64,000 bases of DNA from Candidatus Omnitrophota bacterium (GCA_041651115.1 JBAZJY010000005.1:6405-70404), one strand, 5' to 3'; shown: positions 581-19,373, numbered from the stretch's first letter. Notes: generated by a model not told the origin, from the sequence alone. Numbers and translations: made by a program.

Positions 581-638
581 ACGCACCCAAACCTAAAGGA
601 TGGTTTGGTGTGCACTTACTGTGCGAGGAGGTTTAAAA

Positions 639-4110: not shown

Positions 4111-6264
4111 ATGGCTAAGACAATAGTAGTATTCAGCACAAAAGGCGGCGTGGGTAAAACCCTGGTCGCCTCCAACCTTGCCGTATCATTGGCCAAGGAC
4201 CAGAACCAGCGGGTCTGCCTCCTGGATTTTGACCTCCAGGCGATCGGCGACATGTCGCGGATGCTCGGGCTTAACCCCGAAAGGTCGCTGGTAGATATGC
4301 TGGAGCCTTTGAAACAGCAAGGCGCTGATTTTAAAAAAGACCAGTTTTTCAACCGCAATGCTTTTGGAGTTGACTTCTTACCCGCAGTTTTAAAACCCCA
4401 GCATATCCCCAGCCTTAACCCCGAAGGAATAAGAAATGCCTTCAGCCTGCTGGATAAAGAGTACGATTATATCATCGTCGACGGCGGTAAAAGTTTTAAC
4501 GACGCTTTTATGGCGGCATTAAATCAAGCCAATCTTATCCTGTTGGTAATTACTCCGGATATTCTTTCCATATATCAAACTAAACTGGCATTTGATACGC
4601 TGCAGTTCCTGCATTTCCCGCTTTCAATGCTGCGCATCGTTTTAAACCGCGCTGAATCGCTGGCAAGCATCAGCTGGCAGGAGATCAGGGCAAATCTGCC
4701 CGTAGATATCGTTTCGCTTATTCCGTCGGAAGGCAGGGTCGTCGGCCAGGCAGTGAACCGCGGTATACCGGTTGTCGTTGATAATCCCCGCTCAAAGATT
4801 GGCCTGGCAATAAAGAAACTCGCCTTTGATGTTACTAAAGACAGCGGCCTGTTTATTGAGCGCCGTAATTTAGACGAGCTGCAGCTTAAGGAAGAGCCGT
4901 TTGAGAAGTCGGGCGACTTTTGGAAAAAACAGGGCCTCTCGGAAACAATCGCCGAATCCGCATATTCCGAAGAAAGGGATGAAATACAACTTTTAAAACG
5001 CAGGATCCATAACCGCTTGATTGATGAGCTTGATTTGAAACGGCTGGATCTGAAGGTCTTTTCCGACGCTAAGAAAAACAGAGAGATAAATGATAAAGCC
5101 GAGATCCTGGTTGCTAATCTTTTGGCGGATGAAGCCGGCAGCCTGATCTCTTCCCAGGAAGAGCGTAAGAAGATCGTCAAGGAAATCTTAAACGAAGCCT
5201 TGAGGCTCGGGCCCCTGGAAGATTTACTTGCTGACCCGGATGTCACCGACATCATGGTCAACAATAAGGATGAAGTTTACGTAGAACGCAGGGGAAGGAT
5301 TGAGCGGACTGATAAAAAATTCGTTTCCAATATTCAGGTAAAGACGGTTATTGAGCGTATTATTGCGCCCATCGGCAGGCGTATTGATGAAAGCGTTCCA
5401 ATGGTAGATGCCCGCCTGCCTGACGGTTCGCGCGTAAACGCGATCATCCCGCCGCTTTCGCTGACCGGCCCGGCGCTGACAATCAGAAAATTCCGCAAGG
5501 AAAGGTTTAAGATAGACGAGTTGATCGGGATGAACAGTTTAAATTCGGCAATGTCTATATTCTTACAGGCATGCGTAGCCTCGCGCAAAAATATCATTGT
5601 TTCAGGCGGCACAGGTTCCGGTAAAACTACGGTATTGAATGTCTTGTCCGGTTTTATTCCCGACCGGGAGCGCATTATCACCATTGAAGACGCGGCAGAA
5701 TTAAGGCTGCACCAGACCCATTGGATAAGGCTGGAATCACGGCCTCCGAATATTGAAGGAAAGGGCGCGGTGACCATCCGCGATCTTTTCCGTAATACCC
5801 TGCGTATGCGGCCGGACCGCATCATCATCGGCGAATGCCGCGGCATTGAGACATTAGACATGCTCCAGGCAATGAACACCGGCCACGACGGGTCTATGAC
5901 CACTATCCATGCCAATTCCACGTTTGATGCATTAACCAGGCTTGATTCAATGATCCTGATGTCCGGCGTGGACCTGCCGGTCAGGTCAATACGCGAGATG
6001 ATCGCTTCAGCGATTGATATGATTGTCCACACTGCGCGGCTTGCCGACGGCACGCGTAAGATTACCCAAGTAAGCGAGATCTCCGGTATGAAGGAAGACG
6101 GGCACATTGGGCTGCAGGATGTTTTTATGTTCAAGCAGACCGGCATTGACAAGCAACAGATGGCAATAGGTAATTTCTATGCTACCGGATATGTGCCATC
6201 GTTTATTGAAGAAATGAAAGTAAGAGGCATTGCCCTTCCCGAAGATCTCTTCAAAACCCCGTGA
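4111..6264 (+). CDS. fused CpaE/TadZ-like ParA-family ATPase (N-terminal) and CpaF/TadA secretion ATPase (C-terminal)
   Basis: N-terminal deviant Walker A KGGVGKT (MinD/ParA family, as in CpaE/TadZ). C-terminal half has Walker A GGTGSGKTT, RIITIEDAAEL, GHDGSMTTIHANS and a T2SSE-family His box. One continuous 717-aa ORF. Confidence 0.8.
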   Translation: MAKTIVVFSTKGGVGKTLVASNLAVSLAKDQNQRVCLLDFDLQAIGDMSRMLGLNPERSLVDMLEPLKQQGADFKKDQFFNRNAFGVDFLPAVLKPQHIPSLNPEGIRNAFSLLDKEYDYIIVDGGKSFNDAFMAALNQANLILLVITPDILSIYQTKLAFDTLQFLHFPLSMLRIVLNRAESLASISWQEIRANLPVDIVSLIPSEGRVVGQAVNRGIPVVVDNPRSKIGLAIKKLAFDVTKDSGLFIERRNLDELQLKEEPFEKSGDFWKKQGLSETIAESAYSEERDEIQLLKRRIHNRLIDELDLKRLDLKVFSDAKKNREINDKAEILVANLLADEAGSLISSQEERKKIVKEILNEALRLGPLEDLLADPDVTDIMVNNKDEVYVERRGRIERTDKKFVSNIQVKTVIERIIAPIGRRIDESVPMVDARLPDGSRVNAIIPPLSLTGPALTIRKFRKERFKIDELIGMNSLNSAMSIFLQACVASRKNIIVSGGTGSGKTTVLNVLSGFIPDRERIITIEDAAELRLHQTHWIRLESRPPNIEGKGAVTIRDLFRNTLRMRPDRIIIGECRGIETLDMLQAMNTGHDGSMTTIHANSTFDALTRLDSMILMSGVDLPVRSIREMIASAIDMIVHTARLADGTRKITQVSEISGMKEDGHIGLQDVFMFKQTGIDKQQMAIGNFYATGYVPSFIEEMKVRGIALPEDLFKTP

Positions 6265-6608
6265 AAATAATAAACATCACAAAAGGCACTGTCGTAGCAG
6301 ATAATGCCGTTATCGCTTCTACTTTTTTTAAGCGTCTCAAAGGCCTGCTTGGTAGAAAAAGCATTGAGAAGGGCGAAGCGCTTATAATACAATCCTGCAA
6401 TTCTATCCACAGTTTTTTTATGCGTTTTCCCATTGATGTCCTATTTGTTAATAAGACCGATAAAGTAGTTGCTGTCACAAATTCCTTTGCTCCTTTTCGT
6501 ATCAGCAAGATCTATTTTACCGCTTCTTATGTTATTGAGCTTCCCGCCGGCTCTATAAAAGCTACTTCTACCTCTGTGGGAGATAAGATAGAAATAACTG
6601 CTGGTTAA
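6261..6608 (+). CDS. DUF192 (COG1430) family protein
   Basis: 115 aa. GTG start overlaps the upstream TGA (GTGA), suggesting translational coupling. LKGLLGRK...GEALII..CNSIHSFFMRFPIDVLFV...VIELPAG matches the DUF192 pattern. Confidence 0.55.
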   Translation: MKIINITKGTVVADNAVIASTFFKRLKGLLGRKSIEKGEALIIQSCNSIHSFFMRFPIDVLFVNKTDKVVAVTNSFAPFRISKIYFTASYVIELPAGSIKATSTSVGDKIEITAG

Positions 6609-6796: not shown

Positions 6797-8323
6797 ATGG
6801 GGGTTGTCCATAAATTAACACCGGAAGTCAGGCAATTTGTCCTTGAAAAAAAGCAGCTTAACCCGGAATTAAGCTGCCGGAAGATCAGTTCATTGGTTCT
6901 GGACAAATTCCAGTTCAAGCTCTCCAAGTCCAGCGCCAATGCCATATTTAAGGAAGCAGGTTTAAGCTTAGCCGTAGGCAGGCGGCGCAGCCGCGCTCCG
7001 CTGCCTAAATCTAAACCGTTTATTTATTCCGGCCTTGCGCTTTTTAAAGCCGCGGACAGTATGTTCGGCGGCTCCTTTCATATCAGCGAAGCAATAAAGC
7101 GCGTTGCCGGCGACCCGGATGCCGCGTTAAAAACTGAAAGCCTGCTTGAAGCGCATATCCTGAAGTCCGCGTTAGGCCTGCCGGTGAGTTGGCCTCAATC
7201 TTTTGCCGGAAGTCTTAACCGCAATTCCGGCCTGCTTTCAGAGATCAGCCAGGTATTAAAAAATATCAGCCAGGTCGCCGGCGGTGTTAAAGCCGTTACC
7301 ACCGACGGAAAAGAATTCTATCTTGACGGCCAACTGCACACGCTTTGGCAATCCTCTCAAATCCCGTCTGCGCTTTCCTGCCCTGCCCATAATTTAGAGC
7401 AGCGTATCCTGCAGCAGGCCAAAGGAAAACTGCCGTTCGTACTTTTTTTTGCCCCGGGATTTCGTGAGCCAACGCAGATGTTTTTTGATTTTATCCGCGG
7501 CTTCTCCGATACAGAAAAAAAATTTTCCCACTTCGTTGCGTATAATTATAACCTTGAAGAGCTCAAAAGTATAAAGCTTCCGGAGCCTGCAGGAATAATT
7601 TTCGGCATCTGGCCGTGGCAATTCAAGGAATATATAAAAATAAACGCTGTCTCCGGAATTAAAAAATTTGAATTTGCTCCGCTTAAAAAAGAATTTTTTA
7701 TCTCCGCGGTGGATGTTGAGCTTAAGCAGCCAAAACTGGATGCGACTTTGCATTTTAACGGCTGCCTGCTGAAAGCAAACGCGGAAGAAAAAACCGGTTT
7801 AATTGTTTTAGGCAGCCCGCAGCCCGCAGCTAGTGATCCTGCGGCCCTGGCTAAGGCTTACCTGGAGCATTGGCCTGACCCAACAGGCTCTTTTCAAAGC
7901 TTTAGCCGCAAGGTTGAGGCATCAACCAAGCAAAAAGATACGCAAGACAACGGGGAAGAGACCACATTGTCATTGCGAAGTGCCGCAGGCGCTGAAGCAA
8001 TCCCAATCCCCGGCCTCGATTCCTTACTTGATAACTATCTGAAAACATTAGAGTTATATGTTAGAGATAACCTGCTGCCGGGTAAATATTCAACTGAAAG
8101 CGCGACAATAATAAAAGAGCGTTTTTACCTGTTTGAGTGCGGCCTGACAAAAACAAAAGATAATCTATTTATAAATTTTAAACTTTCCCATGAAGCCGAT
8201 TCTATAAAAGACATTACCTATATCTGCAATCAGGTTAATGAAAAAATAATAATTATGCCTGACAGCCGCAGGCTTTGGCTGGCAGTTTGCTTAGAAAACG
8301 CTTTCCCGGAGGCAGGCAAATGA
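6797..8323 (+). CDS. hypothetical protein with N-terminal helix-turn-helix-like domain
   Basis: 508 aa. The first ~60 aa (LTPEVRQFVLEKKQLNPELSCRKISSLVLDKFQFKLSKSSANAIFKEAGL) look like a homeodomain / transposase-N-type HTH. The rest has no recognised domain. Sits directly downstream of the box pair and hairpin repeat. Confidence 0.5.
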   Translation: MGVVHKLTPEVRQFVLEKKQLNPELSCRKISSLVLDKFQFKLSKSSANAIFKEAGLSLAVGRRRSRAPLPKSKPFIYSGLALFKAADSMFGGSFHISEAIKRVAGDPDAALKTESLLEAHILKSALGLPVSWPQSFAGSLNRNSGLLSEISQVLKNISQVAGGVKAVTTDGKEFYLDGQLHTLWQSSQIPSALSCPAHNLEQRILQQAKGKLPFVLFFAPGFREPTQMFFDFIRGFSDTEKKFSHFVAYNYNLEELKSIKLPEPAGIIFGIWPWQFKEYIKINAVSGIKKFEFAPLKKEFFISAVDVELKQPKLDATLHFNGCLLKANAEEKTGLIVLGSPQPAASDPAALAKAYLEHWPDPTGSFQSFSRKVEASTKQKDTQDNGEETTLSLRSAAGAEAIPIPGLDSLLDNYLKTLELYVRDNLLPGKYSTESATIIKERFYLFECGLTKTKDNLFINFKLSHEADSIKDITYICNQVNEKIIIMPDSRRLWLAVCLENAFPEAGK

Positions 8324-8468
8324 GATTGACGCTTGTTTGTGCGGATGTTATAGTTAGATTGCGATTATAAATATATATATAAGGTAGGATGGTCGGGGGG
8401 GCCGGCCAAGCAAAGCCACGGATGATGTATACTAATTGTCTTTTTATGATTTTGTGGCGTGAAAGCTT

Positions 8469-8500
8469 GCAGCCGGCAGTATTCTGCCGGCTTTTTATTT
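8469..8500 (+). terminator. Rho-independent terminator-like hairpin just upstream of the first pilin gene
   Basis: Perfect 9-bp stem agccggcag / ctgccggct with loop tatt, followed by TTTTTATTT. It lies 10 nt before the pilin RBS (gggag), so it could also act as a 5'-UTR attenuator. Confidence 0.6.
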
Positions 8501-8510
8501 GGGAGTAAAA

Positions 8511-8834
8511 ATGATTTTTAAAAAAGCATTAAGCCAGAGTACCATTGAATATGTGTTGCTGGTGGCAATCACTATAATCGCGCTGGTGGTAGGAGCGAAT
8601 TTTGTTGATCAGATCAAGGGCGGTGCGTTTCAGGCGCATTTTGATGCGGCAAAACCCTTTGTAGCCGGGGAAACAGTTATCTATACCGCGCAGCCTGAGG
8701 CTCCAAGTAACACAGGCAGTACGGGAAATGTTCCGGCGGGCTGTGAATCCTGCCCCAATGATTGCCAATTGTGGCGGACCCAGGTGGGGCCGGATATGCA
8801 GACTTATTGGCGGTGCCCGCCGAACAGAGGATGA
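8511..8834 (+). CDS. Flp-type pilin paralog P1 with a 4-Cys C-terminal extension
   Basis: GGGAG RBS. Class-III leader MIFKKALSQSTIEY followed by the hydrophobic helix VLLVAITIIALVVGA. C-terminus GCESCPNDC...WRCPP. Confidence 0.6.
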   Translation: MIFKKALSQSTIEYVLLVAITIIALVVGANFVDQIKGGAFQAHFDAAKPFVAGETVIYTAQPEAPSNTGSTGNVPAGCESCPNDCQLWRTQVGPDMQTYWRCPPNRG

Positions 8835-8835
8835 G

Positions 8836-9306
8836 ATGATAGATCTGTTAAAGACGACAAGAAAACTAGCCCAGAGCCTTATTGAATACGTGATGATCTT
8901 TGCGATCGTCGCTGCGGCGCTGGGGGTAACTTATAAATATGTTTACCGTTCAATGAACGCGCGTTTGGATGATATACAGGATGTGGTAACTCCTGACCGG
9001 CCTGACGGCGGCAATTGGGATCTGCCCGACGTTGATCCGCCGGATGATCCTGAGCCGCCGAATACGGATTTAGAGAGTTGCCTTGCCGGTAATGACGCGG
9101 AATGTAACCAGCGTTTACAAGAAGGCATAGAATATTGTTGCGTGGAGTGTTGCGGCGCTGTTATGGCTGCTTGTAATGCTAATCCAAGCGACAGCGGTAT
9201 TTGTAACCCGGGTGCTCCCAGTAATGGTTGCCGCTATCCAGAGATTACCAATTGTCAGCAAAGCGGTGAGGCCCAGAGGGATATTTGCTGCGAGAATAAA
9301 TATTAA
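8836..9306 (+). CDS. Flp-type pilin paralog P2 with a 12-Cys C-terminal domain
   Basis: ATG 1 nt after the P1 stop. Leader MIDLLKTTRKLAQSLIEY plus VMIFAIVAAALGV. Pro/Asp-rich linker, then 12 Cys including CC pairs (YCCVECCG, DICCENKY). Confidence 0.6.
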   Translation: MIDLLKTTRKLAQSLIEYVMIFAIVAAALGVTYKYVYRSMNARLDDIQDVVTPDRPDGGNWDLPDVDPPDDPEPPNTDLESCLAGNDAECNQRLQEGIEYCCVECCGAVMAACNANPSDSGICNPGAPSNGCRYPEITNCQQSGEAQRDICCENKY

Positions 9307-9322
9307 CGCGGGTAAAGAAAAG

Positions 9323-9841
9323 ATGAAGAGACCTTACAGATTAGCCCAGAGTCTTATTGAATACGTGATGATCTTTGTGATCGTCGCTGCGGCAGTAGGG
9401 GTAACTTATAAATATATTTATCGCGCAATAAACGCGCGCTTAAAAAACACGCAGGATGAGCTGAACTATAGCCGTTCTGTTGAGGGAGTGGAAGCAGATG
9501 AGTATAATGACGGCAGCGGAGATAAAATTGAGACTTCTGTCGGGAATACTCGTCCGGGCTGTGAGTCTTGCCCGGATAATTGTCGGTCGCGGGTAGTAGC
9601 AACAGGCCGCGGCGGACCTAGTGCGGGTAATTGGGGGGTTGAGTGGTATTGCGCACCGGCTACAGGCGGAAACACAGGTGGAGATACAGGCGGAAACACA
9701 GGTGGAGATACAGGCGGAAACACAGGTGGAGATACCGGCGGTGACACAGGTGGGAATACCGGTGGTTGTCCTGCCGGCTCGCATCGGGTTTGTCATCCAT
9801 GCGGCCGCGGGGATACTTGTTGTAATTGCGTAGGCAATTAA
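9323..9841 (+). CDS. Flp-type pilin paralog P3 with Gly-rich repeats and a 10-Cys C-terminal domain
   Basis: Leader MKRPYRLAQSLIEY plus VMIFVIVAAAVGV. GCESCPDNC motif shared with P1. (GGNTGGDTGG)n repeat encoded by a 30-nt DNA tandem repeat. C-terminal CPAGSHRVCHPCGRGDTCCNC. Confidence 0.6.
   Translation: MKRPYRLAQSLIEYVMIFVIVAAAVGVTYKYIYRAINARLKNTQDELNYSRSVEGVEADEYNDGSGDKIETSVGNTRPGCESCPDNCRSRVVATGRGGPSAGNWGVEWYCAPATGGNTGGDTGGNTGGDTGGNTGGDTGGDTGGNTGGCPAGSHRVCHPCGRGDTCCNCVGN
9655..9765 (+). repeat. 30-nt tandem repeat (about 3.5 copies) inside pilin P3, encoding (GGNTGGDTGG)n
   Basis: acaggcggaaacacaggtggagat acaggcggaaacacaggtggagat acaggcggaaacacaggtggagataccggcggtgacacaggtgggaat. Confidence 0.8.
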
Positions 9842-9897
9842 TGTTGAGCGATCTTAATATGAACAAAAAACAGCAAAACGAAGGAGGTGAAAGAGAA

Positions 9898-10095
9898 ATG
9901 AGAAAGATGAGAAGGGAAGGACAGAGTATTCTTGAATACACCCTGCTTTTGGGTGCGATAATTGCAGTAATCGTAGCGGTTTTATTAGGTGGCCAAAGCA
10001 GCATGAAAGGTAAGGTAGAGGATACGTACGATGCGTTTGGTAATGCAATAAGCAATACGGCAAACGATGCGGATATCGGCGTGCTTACTCCGTAA
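9898..10095 (+). CDS. canonical short Flp pilin P4 (66 aa)
   Basis: GGAGGTG RBS. MRKMRREGQSILEY with the G-XXXX-EY Flp prepilin motif, then LLLGAIIAVIVAVLLGG. Typical Flp size. Confidence 0.75.
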   Translation: MRKMRREGQSILEYTLLLGAIIAVIVAVLLGGQSSMKGKVEDTYDAFGNAISNTANDADIGVLTP

Positions 10096-10114
10096 CGGAT
10101 AAGGAGGTAGTAAA

Positions 10115-10507
10115 ATGTTTCTAAGGAAGAAAGGACAATCTACTGCCGAATACGCGATTGTCATCGGCTTAGTGATTGCCGTGGCAGCAGGCATACTTCA
10201 GGTTGCCTTAAAAGGCGGCATCCGGCAGAAGAATAAACAGGCTACGGATTATTTGGTTGGTGAGAATGACGGCACAGACGGCGGTGCAGGCGGCTACGCG
10301 GCAATGAACGCCCAGATCGCATTAGGTGATCCTGCTGAACTCTACACCCAGGAAATGCGCGATACTACGGTTTTAGGCGGAGATGCCAACTACGTAGATG
10401 AAAGCGTAATGCTTAAAGGCGGAGCAGAGGAAAGACGGCAGAAGCAGGTTACCGAGACAACAGCTGTCAGCGTAGAGGCTATTGAAGGCGTAACAACGGG
10501 GAATTAA
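10115..10507 (+). CDS. Flp-type pilin paralog P5
   Basis: AAGGAGGT RBS. MFLRKKGQSTAEY plus AIVIGLVIAVAAGILQ. Confidence 0.7.
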   Translation: MFLRKKGQSTAEYAIVIGLVIAVAAGILQVALKGGIRQKNKQATDYLVGENDGTDGGAGGYAAMNAQIALGDPAELYTQEMRDTTVLGGDANYVDESVMLKGGAEERRQKQVTETTAVSVEAIEGVTTGN

Positions 10508-10548
10508 ACCGTACCGTAGATCAAAAAGTCATAGGGAGGTGAGCAATA

Positions 10549-11004
10549 ATGTTAAGGCGCAATAGTGGTCAATCAATAGTGGAGTACGCTATTCTTTTAG
10601 GCGTAATCATCGCGGCCTTATTGATCATGCAGGCATTCATCAAAAGAGGCTATCAGGGCGGCCTGAAAGATTCCGCGGACAAGATGGGCGAGCAGTTTTC
10701 CGCAGGAAATACCACAATCAAACAGGCAAGGACAATGGCAGAGGATCAAACTATCAGGGAAGCAGTGGCAACTGATGATGAAATAGCGCTGTTTACCGGC
10801 GACGTAGGCATAGCAGACGTACCGCGTACGCTTGACGCAGGCGCTTATTCTTATAGCGAGCGCAGCCCGGTGGAAATAGCTTCTACCACGCACGTAGTAA
10901 CTGACAGCGCTGATCAGGAAGCAACAAGAAAAGACGCATACGCTAATGTGCAAGTGACCAACTTTCAGTTTGTCAGTCCTGATAGTGATTTTGAAAGGCC
11001 GTAA
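10549..11004 (+). CDS. Flp-type pilin paralog P6
   Basis: GGGAGGTG RBS. MLRRNSGQSIVEY plus AILLGVIIAALLIMQ. Confidence 0.7.
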   Translation: MLRRNSGQSIVEYAILLGVIIAALLIMQAFIKRGYQGGLKDSADKMGEQFSAGNTTIKQARTMAEDQTIREAVATDDEIALFTGDVGIADVPRTLDAGAYSYSERSPVEIASTTHVVTDSADQEATRKDAYANVQVTNFQFVSPDSDFERP

Positions 11005-11017
11005 TAAGGTGGAAAAA

Positions 11018-11209
11018 ATGAAAAGACCCCTTAAGAGAGGACAGAGTATTCTTGAATACGCCCTGCTTTTGGGCGCGATAATCGCAGTGATCGTCGCAGC
11101 TTTACTGGGCAGAGGCGGTATCCAGAGTAAGGTGAGGAATAGTTATGATACTTTCGGAGATGCGATTGAGAGCACGACAACTGATCTAACAAGCAGTGTA
11201 TTTAGATAA
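11018..11209 (+). CDS. canonical short Flp pilin P7 (paralog of P4)
   Basis: AAGGTGG RBS. MKRPLKRGQSILEY plus ALLLGAIIAVIVAALLG. 64 aa. Confidence 0.75.
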   Translation: MKRPLKRGQSILEYALLLGAIIAVIVAALLGRGGIQSKVRNSYDTFGDAIESTTTDLTSSVFR

Positions 11210-11221
11210 GGAGGTAGTAAA

Positions 11222-11581
11222 ATGTTTCTAAGGAAGAAAGGACAATCTACTGCCGAATACGCGATTGTCATCGGCTTAGTGATTGCCGTGGCAGCAGGCA
11301 TACTTCAGGTTGCCTTAAAAGGCGGCATCCGGCAGAAGAATAAAAAAGCAGTGGATTTCTTAGTCGGCGCAGGCAATGACGTTGCTGCCTTTAGCAATGC
11401 CGCGTCCACAGACATCCAACTCTACACCCAGGAAATGCGCGATACTACGGTTTTAGGCGGAGATGCCAACTACGTAGATGAAAGCGTAATGCTTAAAGGC
11501 GGAGCAGAGGAAAGACGGCAGAAGCAGGTTACCGAGACAACAGCTGTCAGCGTAGAAACAATTGACGCTGCAGGACAATAA
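11222..11581 (+). CDS. Flp-type pilin paralog P8 (duplicate of P5)
   Basis: RBS and first ~40 aa identical to P5, and the C-terminal ~45 aa are near-identical. The middle segment has diverged. Confidence 0.7.
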   Translation: MFLRKKGQSTAEYAIVIGLVIAVAAGILQVALKGGIRQKNKKAVDFLVGAGNDVAAFSNAASTDIQLYTQEMRDTTVLGGDANYVDESVMLKGGAEERRQKQVTETTAVSVETIDAAGQ

Positions 11582-11603
11582 AAAATTAGGGAGGTGAGCA
11601 ATA

Positions 11604-12059
11604 ATGTTAAGGCGCAATAGTGGTCAATCAATAGTGGAGTACGCTATTCTTTTAGGCGTAATCATCGCGGCCTTATTGATCATGCAGGCATTCATCAAAA
11701 GAGGCTATCAGGGCGGCCTGAAAGATTCCGCGGACAAGATGGGCGAGCAATATTCTGCCGGCGGAACAACGATCCATAAAAGGAACGCGTTAGGCGCGGG
11801 AGGCCAGCAGATCGTAGAAGAAGTAGCGACAGTAGACGGGTCATCGCCGCTTGCTACTCTTAGCGGGCTTACGCCGGTAGGCACAATCGGCGGCGGAAAG
11901 AGCGCCTATTCTCTGAATACCAGGACAGGCGATACGATGACCTCAACCACAAAAGTGGATACTGACGATGCCCGGCACGAAGCGACAAGAGTGGCGGATT
12001 ACGGCGATGTGTCCAGTTCGGGAGGTAATTTCGCGCTGAGCGATAACGTTGATTTTTAA
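11604..12059 (+). CDS. Flp-type pilin paralog P9 (duplicate of P6)
   Basis: RBS and first ~55 aa identical to P6. The C-terminal half has diverged. Confidence 0.7.
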   Translation: MLRRNSGQSIVEYAILLGVIIAALLIMQAFIKRGYQGGLKDSADKMGEQYSAGGTTIHKRNALGAGGQQIVEEVATVDGSSPLATLSGLTPVGTIGGGKSAYSLNTRTGDTMTSTTKVDTDDARHEATRVADYGDVSSSGGNFALSDNVDF

Positions 12060-12082
12060 GCAGCTAAAAACGGGACAGTGCA

Positions 12083-12409
12083 ATGTTTATAAAAAAGAAT
12101 GGCCAGAGCCTGATGGAATACGCGATACTCTTCAGCGTAGTCGCGGCAGCGCTGTTGATCATGCAGTTTTACGTCAAGCGCGCATACCAGGGCAGGATAA
12201 AGCAGGACGCCGATGAGGTTGGCCAGCAGTATTCTCCGGGCCACACTGCATCTTCGATTTATACCAATACGATGGCAACAAGCACGACCTGCATCGGCGG
12301 CAACTGCTTTGGCCAGGATATTCCCATGGGTATGACCGTGACGAGCGGCAGTACAAGCACGACAATGAGAAAACGGGAAGGGGTTGATTCCTTTGCTTCC
12401 GAGAGGTAG
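12083..12409 (+). CDS. Flp-type pilin paralog P10
   Basis: MFIKKNGQSLMEY plus AILFSVVAAALLIMQ. VKRAYQGRIKQDADEVGQQYSPG is paralogous to the matching segment of P6/P9. Confidence 0.65.
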   Translation: MFIKKNGQSLMEYAILFSVVAAALLIMQFYVKRAYQGRIKQDADEVGQQYSPGHTASSIYTNTMATSTTCIGGNCFGQDIPMGMTVTSGSTSTTMRKREGVDSFASER

Positions 12410-12764
12410 GGCATGCCGCAACAGCGGCTATAGCGTAGTGATGTGGGCAGCAATGTTTGCCGTAATGGTGGGCATGGTGCTTTTTTTCCGCACGCCGATA
12501 AAACGGGCGATGCAGGGGAAAATAAACGATATGGCTGATTATATGTTTTGGACCAAATGGGGCCAGGCGCGTGAGCAATATAAGGGCGATGACACCGGTT
12601 ATACCAAGACAGATACTACCACCATTTCAAGAACAGAACTGGCAGACCGGAGAGGATTTGTTACTTCGGCAATGGATATTTCCGTAGGCGACAGCACCTC
12701 AACTACCGGCGTGAATGACGGGGATCAGGACGCATTGAAAAGCATTGACCTTAACGCTATTTAG
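12384..12764 (+). CDS. degenerate pilin-like paralog, possible pseudogene
   Basis: RNSGYSVVMWAAMFAVMVGMVLFF aligns to RNSGQSIVEYAILLGVIIAALLIM of P6/P9 but the EY is lost, there is no in-frame ATG with an RBS (TTG/GTG only), and it overlaps the P10 stop. IKRAMQGKINDMADYM is conserved with paralogs. Confidence 0.3.
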   Translation: MIPLLPRGRACRNSGYSVVMWAAMFAVMVGMVLFFRTPIKRAMQGKINDMADYMFWTKWGQAREQYKGDDTGYTKTDTTTISRTELADRRGFVTSAMDISVGDSTSTTGVNDGDQDALKSIDLNAI

Positions 12765-12771
12765 CCATAAA

Positions 12772-13584
12772 ATGAAAAAGAATAGGCATAACGATCATAA
12801 AATAATGGGTCAGGCAGCAGTTGAGCTGGCTATTTTCGGCAGTCTGGTGGTATTGGCTTTTTCTGTCCTTATAATGTACGGCCAGCGTTTTGACAACCAG
12901 CAGGAAATAAAAATGGAAGCGTTCCGTCGTGCCCTGCAAAAAGCTTATGAGCGTAATTCAAGCGTAAGTTATACCTATAAAAAAGAAGGCCGTAACTTGA
13001 ACCTTTTCGGCGCGTTTGGCCGCGGCCAGCCCTCTACCGTAGTTTCCACGGCCAGCGTAATGTGGCAAAAAGGCGTATCCGGCGAGCAGGACAGCAGCGG
13101 AAAAGAAAACTTCGCTTATTACCGGATCAACGACTATATGGTAGGCGATGAGATGGGCCTTCCGCGTTATCCTAAACACGTAGAAAGCCTTAGCGGCAAA
13201 AAGGAAAGGGTCCGGGTGCCTGCCAGCGTTTATTCCGAGGAAACGGAAAGAACAGAGATTTACGGTTCCAGCGTAGGCAAGCGCGAGAGCGCTGCGAGCA
13301 TAATTAATACCGCGACTTCCGACTTGACCGATACCGTTTATACAAAATTGCATGTGCGCGTTGACCATTCATACGACGACAATCCTCATGACAATTCAGT
13401 GCCCTTACCGGACTATGCGTATGAAGATCACAGCTATGATAACGAAGGTTCGCAAACAGTCCAATCCGTGCCGGGGGTTTCTCTTGGCGCTTACTCTAAG
13501 GATGCTACCAATCGCGTGAGCTACCGCCAAGATCAGGTTGGCACAACCATTCACCGCGAAAGGACATGGCAAACTGATAATTAA
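12772..13584 (+). CDS. TadE/TadF-like pseudopilin
   Basis: N-terminus GQAAVELAIFGSLVVLAF matches the TadE-like signature (G-x-x-x-VE-F/L-A plus a hydrophobic helix). ~270 aa is typical of TadE/TadF. Confidence 0.55.
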   Translation: MKKNRHNDHKIMGQAAVELAIFGSLVVLAFSVLIMYGQRFDNQQEIKMEAFRRALQKAYERNSSVSYTYKKEGRNLNLFGAFGRGQPSTVVSTASVMWQKGVSGEQDSSGKENFAYYRINDYMVGDEMGLPRYPKHVESLSGKKERVRVPASVYSEETERTEIYGSSVGKRESAASIINTATSDLTDTVYTKLHVRVDHSYDDNPHDNSVPLPDYAYEDHSYDNEGSQTVQSVPGVSLGAYSKDATNRVSYRQDQVGTTIHRERTWQTDN

Positions 13585-13585
13585 T

Positions 13586-15082
13586 ATGAGATCTAAAAAG
13601 TCCCAGTCAATTTTTGATTACACACTTGCCTTTATTGCCTTGGCAGCGCTGGTAGTGGGCATTGTCCGCACCTGGGTCTGGTTCAACGCCAACTATGCCA
13701 AGCGCCAGATGGCTTATCAGACCAGTCGTATTGTTGCCGGCGGCCGCACCTGGCTTGAAGATACCCCAACGGCTTTTGATACTCCTTACGAGGTTCCTTA
13801 TGATATCGGCGCTACCCAGGAAAGCCCCAGCCGTATTTATCAACCCCTTCCTTTGAATAATAACTGGGTATTCGGCGGTCTGGCTTCAGGCAGCACAGGC
13901 GTTGCTGTTGTCGGCGGAGAAGACTGGGTCGGCGGTTTAGGCGCCTGCGGGGACCAATGCACCCAAGAGTGCATTGGTGACACAGCGTGTTATTCAGGAG
14001 TCGGAGATTTTAACACCCTTTGCAGCTGTTACCAGGCTTGTTTTTCAGAATGTAATTGTTTAAGGCAGATATCGCCCATGACCACTCTCTATGCGTCGCA
14101 AATAAGGGATATTTGCGGCCCGGATAACGATTGTAATGTTTCTACTTGCGTTTATTCCGATTGTGAAACTACTGCCGGCTGCGGTCTTGCCTGTAATATG
14201 CGCTGGAGCGCGCAGAGGATGCGGGATGCCGCAGAGCGCTGCGATGACTTTTGGGACGGGCCGTGCAACTGGTTTGGCGGCGGAAGGTCAGCCAGGCAGC
14301 TTAGAGCAGCGGCAAAAGAACTTATCAGGATGGCCTGGCAGCAGGAAATGGGAGCAAGGTTGTCAGGGCGTTCTTCCGTGCGTTTACAGCGTTGCTGTGA
14401 GATGCAGACTGATCTTTTAGCAGCGCAGTGCATGGAAACCGCGCAGAGTACAAATGAATGCGATGCCAATTGCCTGGAGGCCGCTATTGATGTTTTTTAT
14501 GCATGCGTAGAGCGGGGAGTTGATATGGGAATGGTTACCGTTCATCTTGACGGCCCTTGTTTTGTAGAAGCGGAAATCCATAATACTTTTTGCGCTGTTG
14601 CATGCATGACCGGGGAAAACGTACCTTGCGAGGACAAAGTAACGACGCACATTAACGGCTTAAATAGTCAGATAGATGCTTATGAACAGATTATTGAAGA
14701 TAATGAAGATCTTGTAGAAGAAATAGGGGATGTGCTTGCGCAGGCCGCAGCTGCTGCAAGCACAGCTTGTGCTTATAGCAATGATACTTCCTGTTATGCC
14801 GCGGCAAGAAACGATTACTGCATGAACAACTGTTGCCGGGGAGGGGCTTGGGGCAGGGCTTGCGATGAGCCTGCGGAAAACTGCGATAATTGCGCGGGAG
14901 ATGAGTCTTGTCCTGCGTGCGGGCTTTCCCAGCTTAGCGCCAATGTCCAGGCTCAAAATGAAAACTTTGAAGAGGCGATATTAGCGATGCAGGAGGCGAT
15001 CGCGGCTTTGCCGGCCTGCTGCGATGAAGCCGTTGCGATCGTGCAGGACAGGTGCATCAGTAATATAATCAATAACCTATAA
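13586..15082 (+). CDS. Flp/TadE-like prepilin N-terminus fused to a ~400-aa domain with about 40 cysteines
   Basis: MRSKKSQSIFDY plus TLAFIALAALVVGIV, then a domain dense in C-x-x-x-C and CC motifs (GACGDQCTQECIGDTACY, CSCYQACFSECNC, CMNNCCRGG, ENCDNCAGDESCPACG). Confidence 0.6.
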   Translation: MRSKKSQSIFDYTLAFIALAALVVGIVRTWVWFNANYAKRQMAYQTSRIVAGGRTWLEDTPTAFDTPYEVPYDIGATQESPSRIYQPLPLNNNWVFGGLASGSTGVAVVGGEDWVGGLGACGDQCTQECIGDTACYSGVGDFNTLCSCYQACFSECNCLRQISPMTTLYASQIRDICGPDNDCNVSTCVYSDCETTAGCGLACNMRWSAQRMRDAAERCDDFWDGPCNWFGGGRSARQLRAAAKELIRMAWQQEMGARLSGRSSVRLQRCCEMQTDLLAAQCMETAQSTNECDANCLEAAIDVFYACVERGVDMGMVTVHLDGPCFVEAEIHNTFCAVACMTGENVPCEDKVTTHINGLNSQIDAYEQIIEDNEDLVEEIGDVLAQAAAAASTACAYSNDTSCYAAARNDYCMNNCCRGGAWGRACDEPAENCDNCAGDESCPACGLSQLSANVQAQNENFEEAILAMQEAIAALPACCDEAVAIVQDRCISNIINNL

Positions 15083-15099: not shown

Positions 15100-16428
15100 A
15101 TGATCAAGATATCCCGGAATAAAGCGCGTTATGAAAAAGGCCAGATATTCCCGTTTCTTATTGCCGTATTGGTAGTCATTTTGATCGCAATAATGATTAC
15201 GGTCAACCTTGGCCAAGTCGGGATGCTTAAGGTTGATACATCCAATGCGGCAGATGCCGGAGCGCTTGCCGCGGCCAGCACTTTAAGCGGTTATTTGTTG
15301 GGTTTTGGCCTAAAAAGCGATTTTATGGAAGCGCATATGATCACTACCGAAATCTGGGCGGTGATTAACTTTCTGGTGCATTGCGGGGATGGGCCTTATG
15401 GCTGGATAGTCGGACTGGTCCTGGCGCTTATCACCCATATCGCCGGCATGATCAAGAACTTCATAGAATATTTTATCGCGCTCACCGAAGGTAAAATGGC
15501 TTGGGGCCAGGCGAAAAAAACTGCTTTTCAGTATGCTTTTCAAAACGCCGGGGTAGATGAGGTGCGGCCGACTTTCCGGCAGTTCCTGGAGGGCGTATAT
15601 GGGATTTCCGGCGATGAAATAAACGATGTTTCGCCGGCAGACATGGCGCATTACTACAATGTTTATTCCATTGGCGATGATCCCAATAACGCCGGCTTAA
15701 GAAGCCTGATAAAGCAATATACGCAAACCGGATTTAACAAATATATGGAAGAAGCCAGGTATTGGAGATGGGGAAAGATCGCGCCGTGGGAAGGGACTTT
15801 TCCGCCGCGCGTGACTTCCGGTTACGGGTGGAATGATGATGGCACAAACGTCTGTACGGGCAGTAATGATTGCAGGGTTAATGAAGGCGAAGCGTATAAA
15901 AATTACGAAAACTGGGTAGAAGTTGAAATAATGGGTAACATAATGTATCCCCTTGATATATACAGCCCGCTTGCCGAACTTTTTGAAGCGGCCAGGGACC
16001 GGATCCTTGATGCGATTGAAGATGCAGATATGTGGGGCTGGGTAGAAGATATAGCCGATTTCGTCGTCAATCTGATATTCGGAATTACTGCCGGATCTAC
16101 GCAATTTACTTTTCCCGCCGGCTTGGAAATGAGCCCCATAGTGCCCAATACAAGACAAAATCCCATGCATGTCTGGGTCAGGCGCTACAAGAAGAATAAA
16201 GATATTGGACTATGGAATTTTGATTATGGAACCAGCGAATCGTATGCCCAGGGACGCGCTTTTGGCGAAAGAGGAACTGAAGATATTACGCCTGCATTAA
16301 GCGGCCAGATATCGGGATTTATAACCCAATGGATTGACAGCGGAGATAAGCCGGAAGTAGATGACATGTATGACATGTTTGATACCAGTCAGCATTTGTT
16401 TGAAACCGAAATTTCATACGCGAGGTAG
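15100..16428 (+). CDS. TadG-like pilus assembly protein
   Basis: KGQIFPFLIAVLVVILIAIMITVNLGQVGMLKVDTSNAADAGALAAASTL matches the TadE/G-like N-terminal signature (hydrophobic helix, then VD...A.DAAALAAA). Confidence 0.6.
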   Translation: MIKISRNKARYEKGQIFPFLIAVLVVILIAIMITVNLGQVGMLKVDTSNAADAGALAAASTLSGYLLGFGLKSDFMEAHMITTEIWAVINFLVHCGDGPYGWIVGLVLALITHIAGMIKNFIEYFIALTEGKMAWGQAKKTAFQYAFQNAGVDEVRPTFRQFLEGVYGISGDEINDVSPADMAHYYNVYSIGDDPNNAGLRSLIKQYTQTGFNKYMEEARYWRWGKIAPWEGTFPPRVTSGYGWNDDGTNVCTGSNDCRVNEGEAYKNYENWVEVEIMGNIMYPLDIYSPLAELFEAARDRILDAIEDADMWGWVEDIADFVVNLIFGITAGSTQFTFPAGLEMSPIVPNTRQNPMHVWVRRYKKNKDIGLWNFDYGTSESYAQGRAFGERGTEDITPALSGQISGFITQWIDSGDKPEVDDMYDMFDTSQHLFETEISYAR

Positions 16429-16432: not shown

Positions 16433-17284
16433 ATGCTTAGACAAAAGAATATCTTGATTGCGGCAGTTGTTTTAGCATTGATCACGGTATTTTGCCTGCC
16501 CGGTTTTGCGCAAGCCAATGTTGATTTTGAAGTGCCGGTGCCCGAAGGCAGTAGTTTAGTAGAAGATAGGGATATTGCTATGGGGGGCAGGCAGATAAAG
16601 ATAAAGGTTTATACTGCTCCCGTGAGCAGCGCAGCCATCCTGGGCTATTACCGGAGTTTTTTCAGCCAACAGGGGTTCCAGAAAATCCTGGATAAACCCG
16701 AACCGGAGTTAAACAAGCACCTCTTGCGTTTTAAGCAAGGTGATGCGGTAGTTGCCATCGGTGTCTTGAATAAGCCCGGGATAAACAAGATAGTGATTGC
16801 CCGTTATTTGCAGAAAGCCGGCCAGCTTCCTCCGGAAAAATCCGGCGTTTCTTTGACGGAGCTTTTTTCTATGGTGCCGAAAAAAGAGGCTGCAGGCAAG
16901 GATTTGGCAGCTGTGCCCCGCCCGGATAATAGTATCAGGGCGGCTTTTACGGAGCGCGGCGATCATACGCAGCTTTTGTATATCGCGCCGATGAACGCAG
17001 TATCCGTAGTTGATTTTTACAAGAAAGAAATGGAAGCCCAGGGATGGGAGTTAAAAAGGGAGGTTCTCGGCTCTGAAGGCCTGGGTGCTTACGGGATAGC
17101 TAAAGAAGACGCCTTTACCCCGGAAAATCCTATTCTTGAAAGGCCGGGCCATAAGCAGGTCATCCAGGAGATGTCTATACTTGAGTTCAGCGCTGATTTT
17201 GGCGACGCGGAAATAACTATTTTACCGGATCCCAGCCAGGCCCCTGCTGGTTCCGTAATTAAAATTGAGTACGATGAAAAATGA
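16433..17284 (+). CDS. secreted hypothetical protein with an internally duplicated ~110-aa domain
   Basis: GAGG RBS. Signal peptide MLRQKNILIAAVVLALITVFCLPGFAQA. Two similar halves (ILGYYRSFFSQQGFQKI and VVDFYKKEMEAQGWEL). No recognised family. Confidence 0.5.
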   Translation: MLRQKNILIAAVVLALITVFCLPGFAQANVDFEVPVPEGSSLVEDRDIAMGGRQIKIKVYTAPVSSAAILGYYRSFFSQQGFQKILDKPEPELNKHLLRFKQGDAVVAIGVLNKPGINKIVIARYLQKAGQLPPEKSGVSLTELFSMVPKKEAAGKDLAAVPRPDNSIRAAFTERGDHTQLLYIAPMNAVSVVDFYKKEMEAQGWELKREVLGSEGLGAYGIAKEDAFTPENPILERPGHKQVIQEMSILEFSADFGDAEITILPDPSQAPAGSVIKIEYDEK

Positions 17285-17601
17285 AAAAAAATAGCCAAAC
17301 AATATTGGATTATGTTATACTACTGCTGGTTGTGATTACTGCCTTGATGATCATGGGGCATTATGTGAGGAACAGCCTCTCCGGAAAAATGCGCGAAGGC
17401 GCAGATGTATTTTCGCAGGGAGAAGTTTACAGCAACGCGAATACGCACATAACGGAGAACACCATAACGAACGAGGGCGGGTCTATAGATATTGACCTTA
17501 GCGGCCTTGAAGGTCTTAATCTTACCGGCCTTGATTTCACTTGGCTCAACAACTGGACTTTATTTGATGTTGATTTTGGCGGCTGCCCGTTTTGTTGGTA
17601 A
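17281..17601 (+). CDS. Flp-type pilin paralog P13
   Basis: ATGA overlap with the upstream stop. MKKNSQTILDY plus VILLLVVITALMIMG. C-terminal GGCPFCW. Confidence 0.55.
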   Translation: MKKNSQTILDYVILLLVVITALMIMGHYVRNSLSGKMREGADVFSQGEVYSNANTHITENTITNEGGSIDIDLSGLEGLNLTGLDFTWLNNWTLFDVDFGGCPFCW

Positions 17602-17637: not shown

Positions 17638-18495
17638 ATGGTATTTGTCGGCATACTCATAGCTGTTTTTCTTGCCCTCTATATGCTTTCCGATTATTTT
17701 ATGGAAAGCGTCATCCCTTCCCTGACCGGTTATTACGGTGAAATTCAATTAAGGCGCACCGGTAAACTCAGGGGCCAACTTGAAGAATCATTTATTTTCT
17801 GGGAAAAAAAGCGGCTGATGTTGATTTCGCTTGCCCCGCTTATCTTCGGCGGTATATCTTTTCTTTTACTCCGCCACGTCCTTGCCGCGGCTGCCGGGTT
17901 TTTACTGGGGTTTGCTTTCCCGGGATTTATGGTCAAAATGGCGTATCAGGCAAGGATGAAAAAGTTCCAGGGCCAGCTGGTTGATTCGTTGATCATGCTT
18001 TCTTCGTCGCTGAAAGCGGGTTTGAGCTTTATCCAGGCAATAGAGGTTATGTGCGAAGAAATGCCCGCTCCCATATCACAGGAATTCAAGCTGGTTTTGA
18101 AAGAAAACCGCTGGGGCTTAAACCTTGAAGAATCCCTAAAAAGACTACGTAAGCGCGTGCCGCTTGAAGAGGTCAATCTCCTGGTCAGTTCTATCCTCAT
18201 TGCCCGTGAATCAGGCGGCGAGCTGCCCAAGGTCCTTATGCGGTTGACAACTACTATACGCGATAACATTAAATTAAAAGAAAAGATCGCCACTCTCACA
18301 TTGCAGGGAAGGCTGCAGGGCTTAATCATGATGTTTTTGCCTATCGGCTTTAGCTATTTTGTTTCCAAGCAGAACCCCGAGCATTTTGTGGTAATGTGGC
18401 AGAATGCCACGGGCAGGATGTTCATTATGATTGCCGTAGGGCTGCAGATCGTCGGCATGGTCTTGATAAAGAAGATAAGCACAATACGCATATGA
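17638..18495 (+). CDS. tadB: Tad pilus inner-membrane platform protein TadB (T2SS F-type domain)
   Basis: Polytopic. T2SSF-type domain (SLKAGLSFIQAIEVMCEE...VNLLVSSILIARESGGELPKVLMRL). Confidence 0.75.
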   Translation: MVFVGILIAVFLALYMLSDYFMESVIPSLTGYYGEIQLRRTGKLRGQLEESFIFWEKKRLMLISLAPLIFGGISFLLLRHVLAAAAGFLLGFAFPGFMVKMAYQARMKKFQGQLVDSLIMLSSSLKAGLSFIQAIEVMCEEMPAPISQEFKLVLKENRWGLNLEESLKRLRKRVPLEEVNLLVSSILIARESGGELPKVLMRLTTTIRDNIKLKEKIATLTLQGRLQGLIMMFLPIGFSYFVSKQNPEHFVVMWQNATGRMFIMIAVGLQIVGMVLIKKISTIRI

Positions 18496-19373
18496 TGCTC
18501 TATATAATTCTCGCCCTAATCGCAAGTTCAGTATTCCTAATTGTTTACGGAATTTTTGAAGCAAGGCAGGTGCCCCGGCTGCAGTTATTTAATAATATGC
18601 CGCGCCAGAAAAAAGGCGGCTTTGAAAGTATTAAAAAGTCAGCGGCTTACGGCCTGTTGTTGAGGCAAACCGGATTTATTACCCGGCCGTTATTAAAGCT
18701 GCCGTATTTTGTGAACTTGCAGGCGCAGGCAGACGTATTAAAGATAAACATTGACCTCCCCGCGTTTATTCTATTAAAGTTGATCGTGGGCGTCATTGTT
18801 TCTTTCTTAGTCTTTAGATTGCTGTCTCCGACCTATGCCATAATCGGCCTTTTGGTGGGGTTTTTCGTGCCGGATTTTTTTATGTGGAACAAAGTCAAAG
18901 AAAAGAAAGACGCCATTGTCAGGATCTTTCCGGAAACAGTTGACCTTTTGGACATGTGTATTAATGCCGGAGCGGATTTCCTTTCCGCTATTAAATGGGT
19001 GGTGGAAAAAAGCGACCCCAATCCATTTATTGAGCAGCTTTCTATTGTCTTAAGCGAGATCCAGGTTGGTAAAACCCGTTCGCAGGCGCTCAAGGACTTG
19101 GGCAACAGGCTCAAACTTCCCGATATCAGTAGTTTTGTGCGCACGATAATCCAATCGGAAAGAATGGGTACTTCCATTGAAGAGGCGTTCGGCAACATGT
19201 CCCAAGATACGCGCGAAAAGCGCTTCCAGTCCGGCGAGAGATATGCCATTAAGGCTTCGCTGAAGATCCTTTTCCCCTTGCTTTTTTGTATCCTGCCTGC
19301 TATATTAATCGTAGTTGCCGGCCCGGTTATTATTAAATTTACCTCGGGCGAGCTGATCCCCAAGAATTTCTAA
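18492..19373 (+). CDS. tadC: Tad pilus inner-membrane platform protein TadC (T2SS F-type domain)
   Basis: ATGA overlap with the tadB stop. T2SSF domain (TVDLLDMCINAGADFLSAIKWVV...SFVRTIIQSERMGTSIEEAF). TM helices at both ends. Confidence 0.75.
   Translation: MMLYIILALIASSVFLIVYGIFEARQVPRLQLFNNMPRQKKGGFESIKKSAAYGLLLRQTGFITRPLLKLPYFVNLQAQADVLKINIDLPAFILLKLIVGVIVSFLVFRLLSPTYAIIGLLVGFFVPDFFMWNKVKEKKDAIVRIFPETVDLLDMCINAGADFLSAIKWVVEKSDPNPFIEQLSIVLSEIQVGKTRSQALKDLGNRLKLPDISSFVRTIIQSERMGTSIEEAFGNMSQDTREKRFQSGERYAIKASLKILFPLLFCILPAILIVVAGPVIIKFTSGELIPKNF

Follow-up and report, generated by a model that had tools for sequence, protein, structure and literature searches.

The DNA examined here, a window of 64,000 nucleotides (nt) on a contig of a Candidatus Omnitrophota metagenome-assembled genome (MAG; GCA_041651115.1, JBAZJY010000005.1:6405-70404), carries on its plus strand a complete Tad (type IVc pilus) locus, as judged from open reading frames (ORFs) and Pfam domains. 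At least 13 pilin-like genes are arrayed between 8511 and 17601 on this strand, and one of them, P12, encodes a protein of 498 amino acids (aa) with 40 Cys. Most probably, P12 serves in the tip complex of the pilus as a minor pilin of modular build, in which the head consists of disulfide-stapled helical hairpins and is not a cystine knot. The reading as a whole, which places P12 as a minor pilin in the TadF slot with a disulfide-stapled helical head and takes the short pilins P1, P2, P3 and P13 to be tailed in this strain, is considered moderately probable. P12 and its two neighbors are arranged as follows:

12772-13584, plus strand: TadE-like minor pilin, 270 aa, with the N-terminus GQAAVELAIFGSL, named by motif and position only.
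13586-15082, plus strand: P12, 498 aa; a predicted helix spans aa 4-52 at the N-terminus, aa 53-112 form a linker, and aa 113-498 (nt 13922-15079) a Cys-rich, predicted all-alpha domain.
15100-16428, plus strand: TadG-like protein, 442 aa, with an N-terminal Pfam Tad domain (PF13400), inside the pilin array.

The P12 sequence is 100% identical to an NCBI protein of a 'Candidatus Omnitrophota bacterium' MAG, and a word-indexed search retrieved four relatives at 34-49% identity that share ~30 invariant Cys columns. An exhaustive comparison of the P12 profile with 1.84 billion cluster representatives returned 175 representatives with E<=1e-3, 62 of which reach E<=1e-30; the matches are mostly 400-750 aa long with 6-10% Cys, the largest (P0081) reaching 1233 aa and 109 Cys. 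Among species-representative genomes, all ten loci with a member of the family belong to Omnitrophota-type MAGs, two of them labelled 'Planctomycetales'. None of the Pfam or NCBIfam models scored above threshold against P12 or the other pilin-like proteins, and a Pfam scan of 49 relatives yielded only coiled-coil-type noise, DUF6381 in five and WXG100 in two. Judged by sequence, P12 represents a real, unannotated and conserved family of about 60-100 clusters, which is specific to Omnitrophota in so far as its hits fall in named genomes.

All 40 Cys of P12 lie between residues 121 and 490, and their enrichment over the background of the window (0.4%, or 30 Cys in 7508 residues of 19 other genes) corresponds to a binomial tail of 1e-42. 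An alignment of 49 sequences contains 21 Cys columns with a conservation of >=92% (22 if C148, at 82%, is included), and outside the N-terminal segment Cys accounts for the majority of the conserved columns. The mature Cys count is even in 54 of the 67 long family members (binomial p=4.5e-7), several odd totals become even when a leader Cys is discounted, and the 18 accessory Cys of P12 form even-sized sets that are gained or lost jointly (phi 0.93 for 121/152, 1.0 for both 177/203 and 336/340, and 0.95 for 296/336); shared ancestry inflates both the parity and the covariation figures, and indels also add to the accessory-Cys correlations.

The spacing of the Cys residues points to the geometry of their probable pairing. 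Across the family, the commonest distance from one Cys to the next is i+4, and further peaks occur at 7, 8 and 11, all of which place the residues on the same helix face. Mirrored CXnC...CXnC pairs separated by a short loop number 721, compared with 221 +/- 24 in per-protein shuffles, a 3.3x excess. In P12 itself, the triplet 121/125/129 mirrors 148/152/156, and 292/296/307 mirrors 325/336/340, in each case on consecutive predicted helices, a register that is expected for antiparallel helical hairpins stapled by two or three disulfides each. The mirrored CX3C register thus supports Cys-Cys pairing at the level of sequence, in which a conserved core of 22 Cys would form 11 bonds and the accessory sets would bring the total to 40 Cys and 20 bonds; the bonds are considered probable.

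The same figures bear on the alternative that the Cys residues bind metals (Zn, Fe or Fe-S, Cu) and do not form disulfides, which would make these proteins a metal-binding or redox-active pilus component of an anaerobe. The counts are even but often not multiples of four, and many are 2 mod 4 (42, 50, 38), which argues against Cys4 metal sites alone. The dominant CX3C on helix faces in mirrored pairs corresponds to stapled hairpins of the twin-CX3C and CX9C kind, not to metal knuckles; conserved His residues are scarce, and no Pfam metal-binding domain was matched. Pilins are moreover exported unfolded, which precludes the insertion of clusters in the cytoplasm. CxxC-type motifs do occur in the array, namely GCESCP..C in P1 and P3, CHPC and CCNC in the P3 tail and CPFC in P13, and the lack of a Dsb gene within the window also suits metal binding. 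Furthermore, Omnitrophota are often anaerobic, and some are predicted to have conductive pilins or metal-reducing cytochromes (PMC10066038). On balance, metal binding appears highly improbable, and disulfide stapling is preferred.

With 49 sequences, AlphaFold2 (pLDDT 84, pTM 0.63) predicts that residues 4-52 of P12 form an N-terminal helix of 49 residues and residues 113-498 an all-alpha domain, joined by a linker that is ordered only in part; this run superseded an initial one that used 5 sequences and reached pLDDT 62. In terms of the pilin fold, the model combines a long N-terminal helix with a folded head that is predicted to be all-alpha. An earlier note on this DNA had envisaged cystine-knot-like extensions, an idea with which the predicted helical bundle is at odds; its broader suggestion of disulfide-rich folded modules fits the P12 domain, which is conserved, predicted to be folded and marked by a pairing signature, and fails for the orthologues of P1, P2 and P3, which are tailless. 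The note had also allowed that the domains might prove disordered and without a consistent Cys pattern, and P12 displays neither property, given its pLDDT of 84 and its conserved Cys pattern. Foldseek searches with the P12 model gave no meaningful match (best E 0.43 with TM<0.2 in PDB, best E 0.36 in BFVD). The P12 profile likewise matched PDB sequences only insignificantly, the hits being helical or coiled-coil proteins (Rop, designed coiled coils, HA2 and COX17, the last at E 0.027), which are at most a hint of the type of hairpin.

Gene order is conserved as well. In 13 related loci, the genes follow the order TadZ/A, a protein of unknown family, P1, P2/3, P4, P5, P6, P10, P11, TadE-like, P12, TadG-like, AF_1845-like, P13, TadB and TadC. 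The TadE-like gene lies directly 5' of P12 wherever it can be traced, i.e., in 12 of the 13 related loci and in the more distant locus L021, and the TadG-like gene lies directly 3' of P12 in every locus that reaches that far. The succession TadE-like, P12, TadG-like holds in the window, in the 13 loci wherever they are long enough, and in L021, and places P12 in the tadF slot of the canonical tadE-tadF-tadG order. The content of this slot varies widely. L021 contains a distant relative of 959 aa and 102 Cys (8001-10880), L018 a version of 82 aa without a Cys module (4282-4527), and L012 and L019 versions with 8-12 Cys; both L018 and L021 keep the N-terminus QSILDF...RIWxWFNANY. As read from these sequences, the Cys module of P12 is dispensable as well as expandable, ranging from 0 to about 109 Cys across lineages, and such wide variation in module size is expected for an adaptable tip.

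The N-terminus of P12 resembles that of the short pilins in the array. In P1, P2, P3 and P12, a short basic leader and one small residue precede Q-S-x-x-(E/D)-Y and a run of ~20 hydrophobic residues, a pattern common to nine neighboring genes. The putative cleavage sites, marked here by a slash, are KKALS/QSTIEY in P1, RKLA/QSLIEY in P2, YRLA/QSLIEY in P3 and KKS/QSIFDY in P12, where Asp occupies position +5, and cleavage would be performed by a prepilin peptidase. The 95 members of the P12 family that were compared have A, S or G at -1 and F or Y at +6; Q stands at +1 in 88 of them, and +5 is occupied by D in 61, by G in 22 and by E in 7. The pattern is therefore like that of the neighboring pilins except for the weak or absent Glu5. 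In other type IV filaments, tip-most minor pilins such as the GspK-type pseudopilins characteristically lack Glu5. The lack of this residue in P12 fits a tip role and fits a non-polymerizing membrane anchor equally well.

The latter option corresponds to a distinct explanation, in which P12 would be an uncleaved bitopic inner-membrane protein whose Cys-rich helical domain belongs, in the periplasm, to the assembly or alignment apparatus of the Tad system, for instance as a scaffold or ruler between platform and secretin. Position +5 is Asp or Gly instead of the Glu that mediates pilin-pilin packing, Gly is found at -1 in only 25 of the 95 members, and the strongly conserved, Trp-rich juxtamembrane segment RIWxWFNANY looks like an interfacial anchor. 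The long helices of P12 are reminiscent of periplasmic spacers, its domain is large for a protein that has to pass a secretin, and a Pfam match to a pilin family is absent. However, the leader, Q at +1, the acidic +5 and the aromatic +6 are the same as in 12 neighboring pilins, Glu5 is classically absent from tip-most minor pilins such as GspK, and the gene sits exactly in the tadE-tadF-tadG slot. In addition, a module that may be absent (82 aa in L018) or tripled suggests a variable surface module over a machine part of fixed geometry. A membrane scaffold is thus regarded as unlikely.

Under the preferred reading of P12 as a tip minor pilin, the region would be the pilin array of an Omnitrophota-type Tad pilus. 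The N-terminus of P12 would comprise a pilin-type signal and an alpha-1 helix with Asp or Gly at +5, and its extracytoplasmic part would form a bundle of long helices, in which antiparallel hairpins become stapled by disulfides upon oxidation of the Cys residues. By analogy to TadE/F/G and KilL/M/N, P12 and its TadE-like and TadG-like neighbors may form a pilus-priming or tip complex, so that a rigid, oxidation-locked module might be displayed at the pilus tip, where it could contact a host or prey cell in an adhesive role. In Omnitrophota, which are inferred to use Tad pili for attachment to, or predation on, other cells, the P12 module is a plausible host-contact element, and its strong variation in size agrees with this idea. 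The tails of P1, P2, P3 and P13 would decorate the pilus with disulfide-stabilized knobs on flexible linkers.

Several observations weigh against this reading. Neither a prepilin peptidase (Peptidase_A24, of the TadV/CpaA type) nor a Dsb or VKOR gene was recognized within the 64-kb window. Flp_Fap (PF04964) did not match P1-P4, P7, P12 or P13 even at E<=10, TadE (PF07811) and Tad (PF13400) did not match P12 or 48 of its relatives, and the only signals were below threshold (Class_IIIsignal at E 0.07-0.1, and P5 to TadE at E 0.0056); P12 and P1-P3 are accordingly without a Pfam TadE or Flp match. The predicted head of P12 is all-alpha, in contrast to the beta-rich heads of described minor pilins. 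Many Omnitrophota are anaerobic (PMC10066038), which makes extensive disulfide formation less obvious. To these points are added the phylogenetic inflation of the Cys statistics, the restriction of the P1-P3 tails to one strain, and the fact that a second assembly of the same strain (L004) supports the assembly but not an independent lineage or population.

The assignment of these proteins as pilin-like, or 'Flp-type' in the wording of the earlier note, relies on the N-terminal motif and the locus context. The Flp N-terminal feature (leader, small residue at -1, Glu at +5, Tyr or Phe at +6, ~20 hydrophobic residues) is present in P1, P2 and P3, and P12 has Asp at +5. The Flp size feature, i.e., ~40-60 mature residues without a globular domain, is not shared by P1, P2, P3 or P12 but is found in the orthologues. 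The designation therefore holds for pilin-like N-termini within a genuine Tad locus, and it does not extend to the family models, since Flp_Fap, TadE and Class_IIIsignal all remained below threshold. The extended short pilins and their modules are as follows:

8511-8834, plus strand: P1, Flp-like pilin, 107 aa; KKALS/QSTIEY and a hydrophobic helix at the N-terminus are followed by a Pro/Thr/Ser linker and then by a 4-Cys module.
8739-8831, plus strand: C-terminal 4-Cys module of P1, GCESCPNDC...WRCPP, with Cys 78, 81, 85 and 102; its sole homologue is the P3 module.
8836-9306, plus strand: P2, a 156-aa Flp-like pilin in which a 12-Cys module (Cys 82-152, nt 9079-9291) follows an Asp/Pro-rich linker.
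9323-9841, plus strand: P3, Flp-like pilin, 172 aa, with the pilin-like N-terminus, a GCESCPDNC module (nt 9557-9660), a repeat linker and a 6-Cys tail (nt 9767-9838).
9661-9765, plus strand: 24-nt tandem repeat in P3, 3.9 copies by repeat analysis, encoding the (TGGNTGGD)n linker.
17281-17601, plus strand: P13, Flp-like pilin, 106 aa, between the AF_1845-like gene and tadB, with a terminal CPFC.

Translation reproduced exactly the Cys counts of the earlier note, i.e., 4 in P1 (107 aa), 12 in P2 (156 aa), 10 in P3 (172 aa) and 40 in P12 (498 aa), including the CC pairs of P2, which are at 101/102, 105/106 and 151/152. The boundaries given there require adjustment: P1 starts at 8511 and not at 8700, P12 is 498 aa long with a Cys-rich domain of about 380 aa, and P13 is a fourth extended pilin beyond the range then considered. 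All Cys of P1, P2, P3 and P12 are C-terminal to the hydrophobic N-terminal helix, and the binomial tails for enrichment in the short pilins are 6e-5 (P1), 3e-14 (P2) and 1e-10 (P3). The motif shared by P1 (GCESCPNDC) and P3 (GCESCPDNC) was likewise confirmed; the two copies are the only C[ED]SC matches in the six-frame translation of the window, and the likeness of the two proteins extends over ~40 residues (S.GN...GCESCP..C...R..V..GP...W.C.P). P2 and P3 are paralogous over their N-terminal ~45 residues and, from sequence comparison, represent a duplication of a single orthologous gene.

The tails, each a linker plus a Cys module of 55-125 residues in P1, P2 and P3, are confined to this strain. 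Orthologues of P1, P2 and P3 in 14 related Omnitrophota loci comprise about 44-60 mature residues without extension and with <=1 Cys (for P1, precursors of 56-65 aa and 47-60 mature residues, again with <=1 Cys), so that homologs lacking the Cys residues, an outcome that the earlier note had named as speaking against its proposal, are what these loci contain. In P13, a strain-specific extension of ~45 aa ends in GGCPFCW; its orthologues are mostly precursors of 66-75 aa (95 aa in L021) without the terminal Cys pair. A long P2 match in L017 was rejected as a tblastn artefact across two genes, the orthologue there having 55 aa. Among 5.8 billion proteins, P2 found only itself and an N-terminal match to P3, and a P1+P3 profile with the repeat linker removed found nothing beyond the proteins of this strain. 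The P1-P3 tails matched none of the Pfam or NCBIfam models of Cys-rich domains. A degenerate DNA scan of JGI metagenome contigs for GCESCP(N/D)(D/N)C produced six matches, which were judged to be due to chance, as four encode GCERCP in Arg-rich high-GC frames and two are in short non-pilin ORFs. From the sequences, the tails of P1, P2, P3 and P13 are strain-specific additions, and on present evidence those of P1-P3 are a single-strain curiosity.

These negative searches, together with orthologues in 14 loci that all end after roughly 45-70 mature residues, raise the question of whether the tails of P1-P3 (and P13) arose recently by read-through or insertion and have little or no function, or else are assembly artefacts, in which case only P12 would be meaningful. 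The P3 linker is in addition a slippage-prone tandem repeat whose length differs between assemblies: L004 contains one 24-nt unit fewer, which is either true variation or repeat collapse in one assembly. Nevertheless, the same genes are present in L004, where 10.6 kb align with 0 mismatches and the P3 unit is the sole difference, and the identical sequences in this second assembly count against an artefact. A functionless origin is also opposed by the Cys enrichment (6e-5 to 3e-14 over background), by the even count in each of the four proteins and by the linker-plus-module design that is consistent among them. Furthermore, the GCESCPxxC motif of P1 and P3 differs by 4 synonymous changes in nine codons, which suggests constraint rather than recent gene conversion. 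The tails are therefore argued to be real on account of their even Cys counts, their common pilin-linker-module design, the presence of a tail on P13 as well and the retention of the motif despite synonymous changes, and a functionless or artefactual origin is considered rather unlikely.

Two further observations concern the tails themselves. The P3 tail contains an RGD among Cys residues (CGRGDTCC, 9806-9829, residues 162-169), superficially disintegrin-like, and any significance of this RGD was dismissed as it is probably due to chance. A reading of the Cys tails as RiPP precursors was also abandoned, because the locus is without a maturase and the N-termini are pilin-like.

The remaining features of the Tad locus and of the pilin array are as follows:

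600-1553, plus strand: SurA-like PPIase, the first gene in the locus order.
1554-2477, plus strand: RcpC/CpaB, by domain match.
2488-4101, plus strand: secretin with a fused C-terminal TonB_C domain, by domain match.
4111-6264, plus strand: fusion of TadZ (ParA-like) and TadA (T2SSE ATPase), 717 aa, by domain match.
6261-6608, plus strand: DUF192 gene, ~115 aa, placed by correspondence with L004 6939-7286.
6797-8323, plus strand: 508-aa protein without a family match, conserved only partly.
9898-12059, plus strand: Cys-free pilin genes P4-P5-P6 and their tandem duplicate P7-P8-P9, from translations and DNA comparison.
12083-12409, plus strand: P10, a pilin-like protein of 108 aa in which Cys 70 and 75 make up a C-x4-C pair, from translation.
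Within the pilin array, before P13, plus strand: secreted AF_1845-like protein, from the locus order.
17638-19373, plus strand: TadB-like and TadC-like platform proteins (T2SSF domains), by domain match.

RcpC, Secretin, T2SSE, two T2SSF proteins and a Tad domain are all present, as is characteristic of a Tad pilus locus, and both the secretin-TonB_C and the TadZ-TadA fusion recur in the related Omnitrophota loci L001, L004 and L021. The DUF192 gene overlaps the end of the TadZ/TadA gene and is kept in related loci. The TadE-like protein of 270 aa had no Pfam match above threshold. Within the array, P4-P5-P6 (9898-11004) and P7-P8-P9 (11018-12059, both plus strand) have gene ends that are 94-98% identical in DNA, and the diverged middles of P5/P8 and P6/P9 give a mosaic pattern; the major Flp-like pilin may be P4 or P7 (63-65 aa). 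The Cys pair of P10 is either whole or absent, never half, in the orthologues inspected. After tadC, 19488-20024 and 20071-20601 (plus strand) encode two predicted lipoproteins, paralogues of ~177 aa that match PsbP-like proteins weakly, and a homologue is located at the same site in L021 and in one further related contig. Directly 3' of the Tad locus, two giant ORFs follow on the plus strand, of which the first has 2515 aa (21562-29109) and the second, which continues past the end of the window, at least 11,500 aa (29501-64000); unlike P12, both are Cys-poor (0.1-0.2%). Giant ORFs beside Tad loci are a described trait of Omnitrophota (PMC10066038; bioRxiv 10.64898/2026.06.07.730766).

The lifestyle of these bacteria provides the context for P12. 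Tad systems of Omnitrophota have been linked to a predatory or parasitic lifestyle, and in uncultured Omnitrophota nanobacteria the Tad pilus and the adjoining giant ORFs are the main genomic clues to host attachment (PMC10066038). The P12 module is a concrete candidate for the host-contacting part of such a pilus, and its diversity is a marker that could be mapped against host range. It would extend the idea of an adaptable Tad tip (PMC12075869) to a new phylum and to an all-alpha, Cys-stapled architecture, and it raises the question of how mostly anaerobic, genome-reduced cells oxidize 20-50 disulfides per protein. The strain-specific tails of P1-P3 show fast remodelling of pilus surfaces. 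In a more far-reaching proposal, which we put forward tentatively and regard as doubtful, the P12 family would represent an unrecognized fold class, in which disulfide-stapled helical hairpins are concatenated on a pilin helix, and the host-contacting Tad pilus tip of ultra-small, host-dependent Omnitrophota, in which lineage-specific Cys expansion together with the knobs of P1-P3 and P13 sets host or prey specificity, the whole acting as an oxidation-hardened 'harpoon head' alongside the giant surface proteins encoded next to it.

Pilins of modular build, tip complexes of Tad pili and archaeal pilus proteins with Cys residues are already known; a description of Cys-rich Tad pilins in Omnitrophota was not found in the literature searched. 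TadE/F/G-like minor pilins form modular tip complexes in Myxococcus (KilL/KilM/KilN) and are predicted to do so in other bacteria, these systems being characterized by large minor pilins with variable modules of unknown fold (PMC12075869). The 'undescribed minor-pilin class' of the earlier note is therefore too broad a suggestion, given that modular Tad tip minor pilins such as KilLMN have been described (PMC12075869); it is the P12 domain itself that lacks a Pfam or NCBIfam model. In common with TadE/F/G and the Myxococcus proteins (PMC12075869), the present system has three consecutive genes of the tad locus with pilin-type N-terminal helices, at least one member with a large, lineage-variable C-terminal module, and an occurrence in predatory or host-dependent bacteria. 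However, KilN-type modules combine a beta-scaffold with helices, whereas the P12 module is predicted to be all-alpha with 6-10% Cys and up to about 109 Cys; P12 has no Pfam TadE match, and its location at the tip is proposed here.

Flp/Fap pilins (PF04964), such as Caulobacter PilA, share with the short pilins a basic leader, a small residue at -1, Glu5-Tyr6, a single hydrophobic helix and a tad locus, as well as the size of roughly 45-60 mature residues in the orthologues of P1-P3. In contrast, P1-P3 have no match to the Flp_Fap hidden Markov model, their Gln at +1 and QSxxEY are closer to the archaeal class III signal motif, and they carry here the linker and Cys-module tails of 55-125 residues. 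The modular type IV pilins PilB and PilC of Streptococcus sanguinis likewise join a pilin N-terminus to an extra functional module, and tip pseudopilins without Glu5 (GspK, PilX-type) resemble P12 in that the biggest of the minor pilins has no Glu5 and would be expected to enter first, at the tip. However, PilB, PilC and GspK belong to other subfamilies of type IV filaments (the type IVa pili and the type II secretion system), and their modules have vWA, lectin or alpha-domain folds with few Cys.

Multiple conserved Cys have also been noted in proteins of Thermoproteales type IV pilus loci, where they are proposed to form stabilizing disulfides (Makarova et al. 2016, PMC4858521); these proteins are archaeal and hyperthermophilic, no homology to them was found, and none is a single hyper-Cys-rich helical module. 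The closest parallel to the proposed architecture of the P12 head is the twin CX3C/CX9C hairpin of the small Tims and of COX17/CHCH proteins, in which Cys residues one to three helical turns apart on antiparallel helices follow the same mirrored register. Those proteins are small, eukaryotic and mitochondrial, and have no significant sequence similarity to P12 (COX17 E=0.027-0.12), whereas P12 would consist of many such hairpins concatenated behind a pilin helix.

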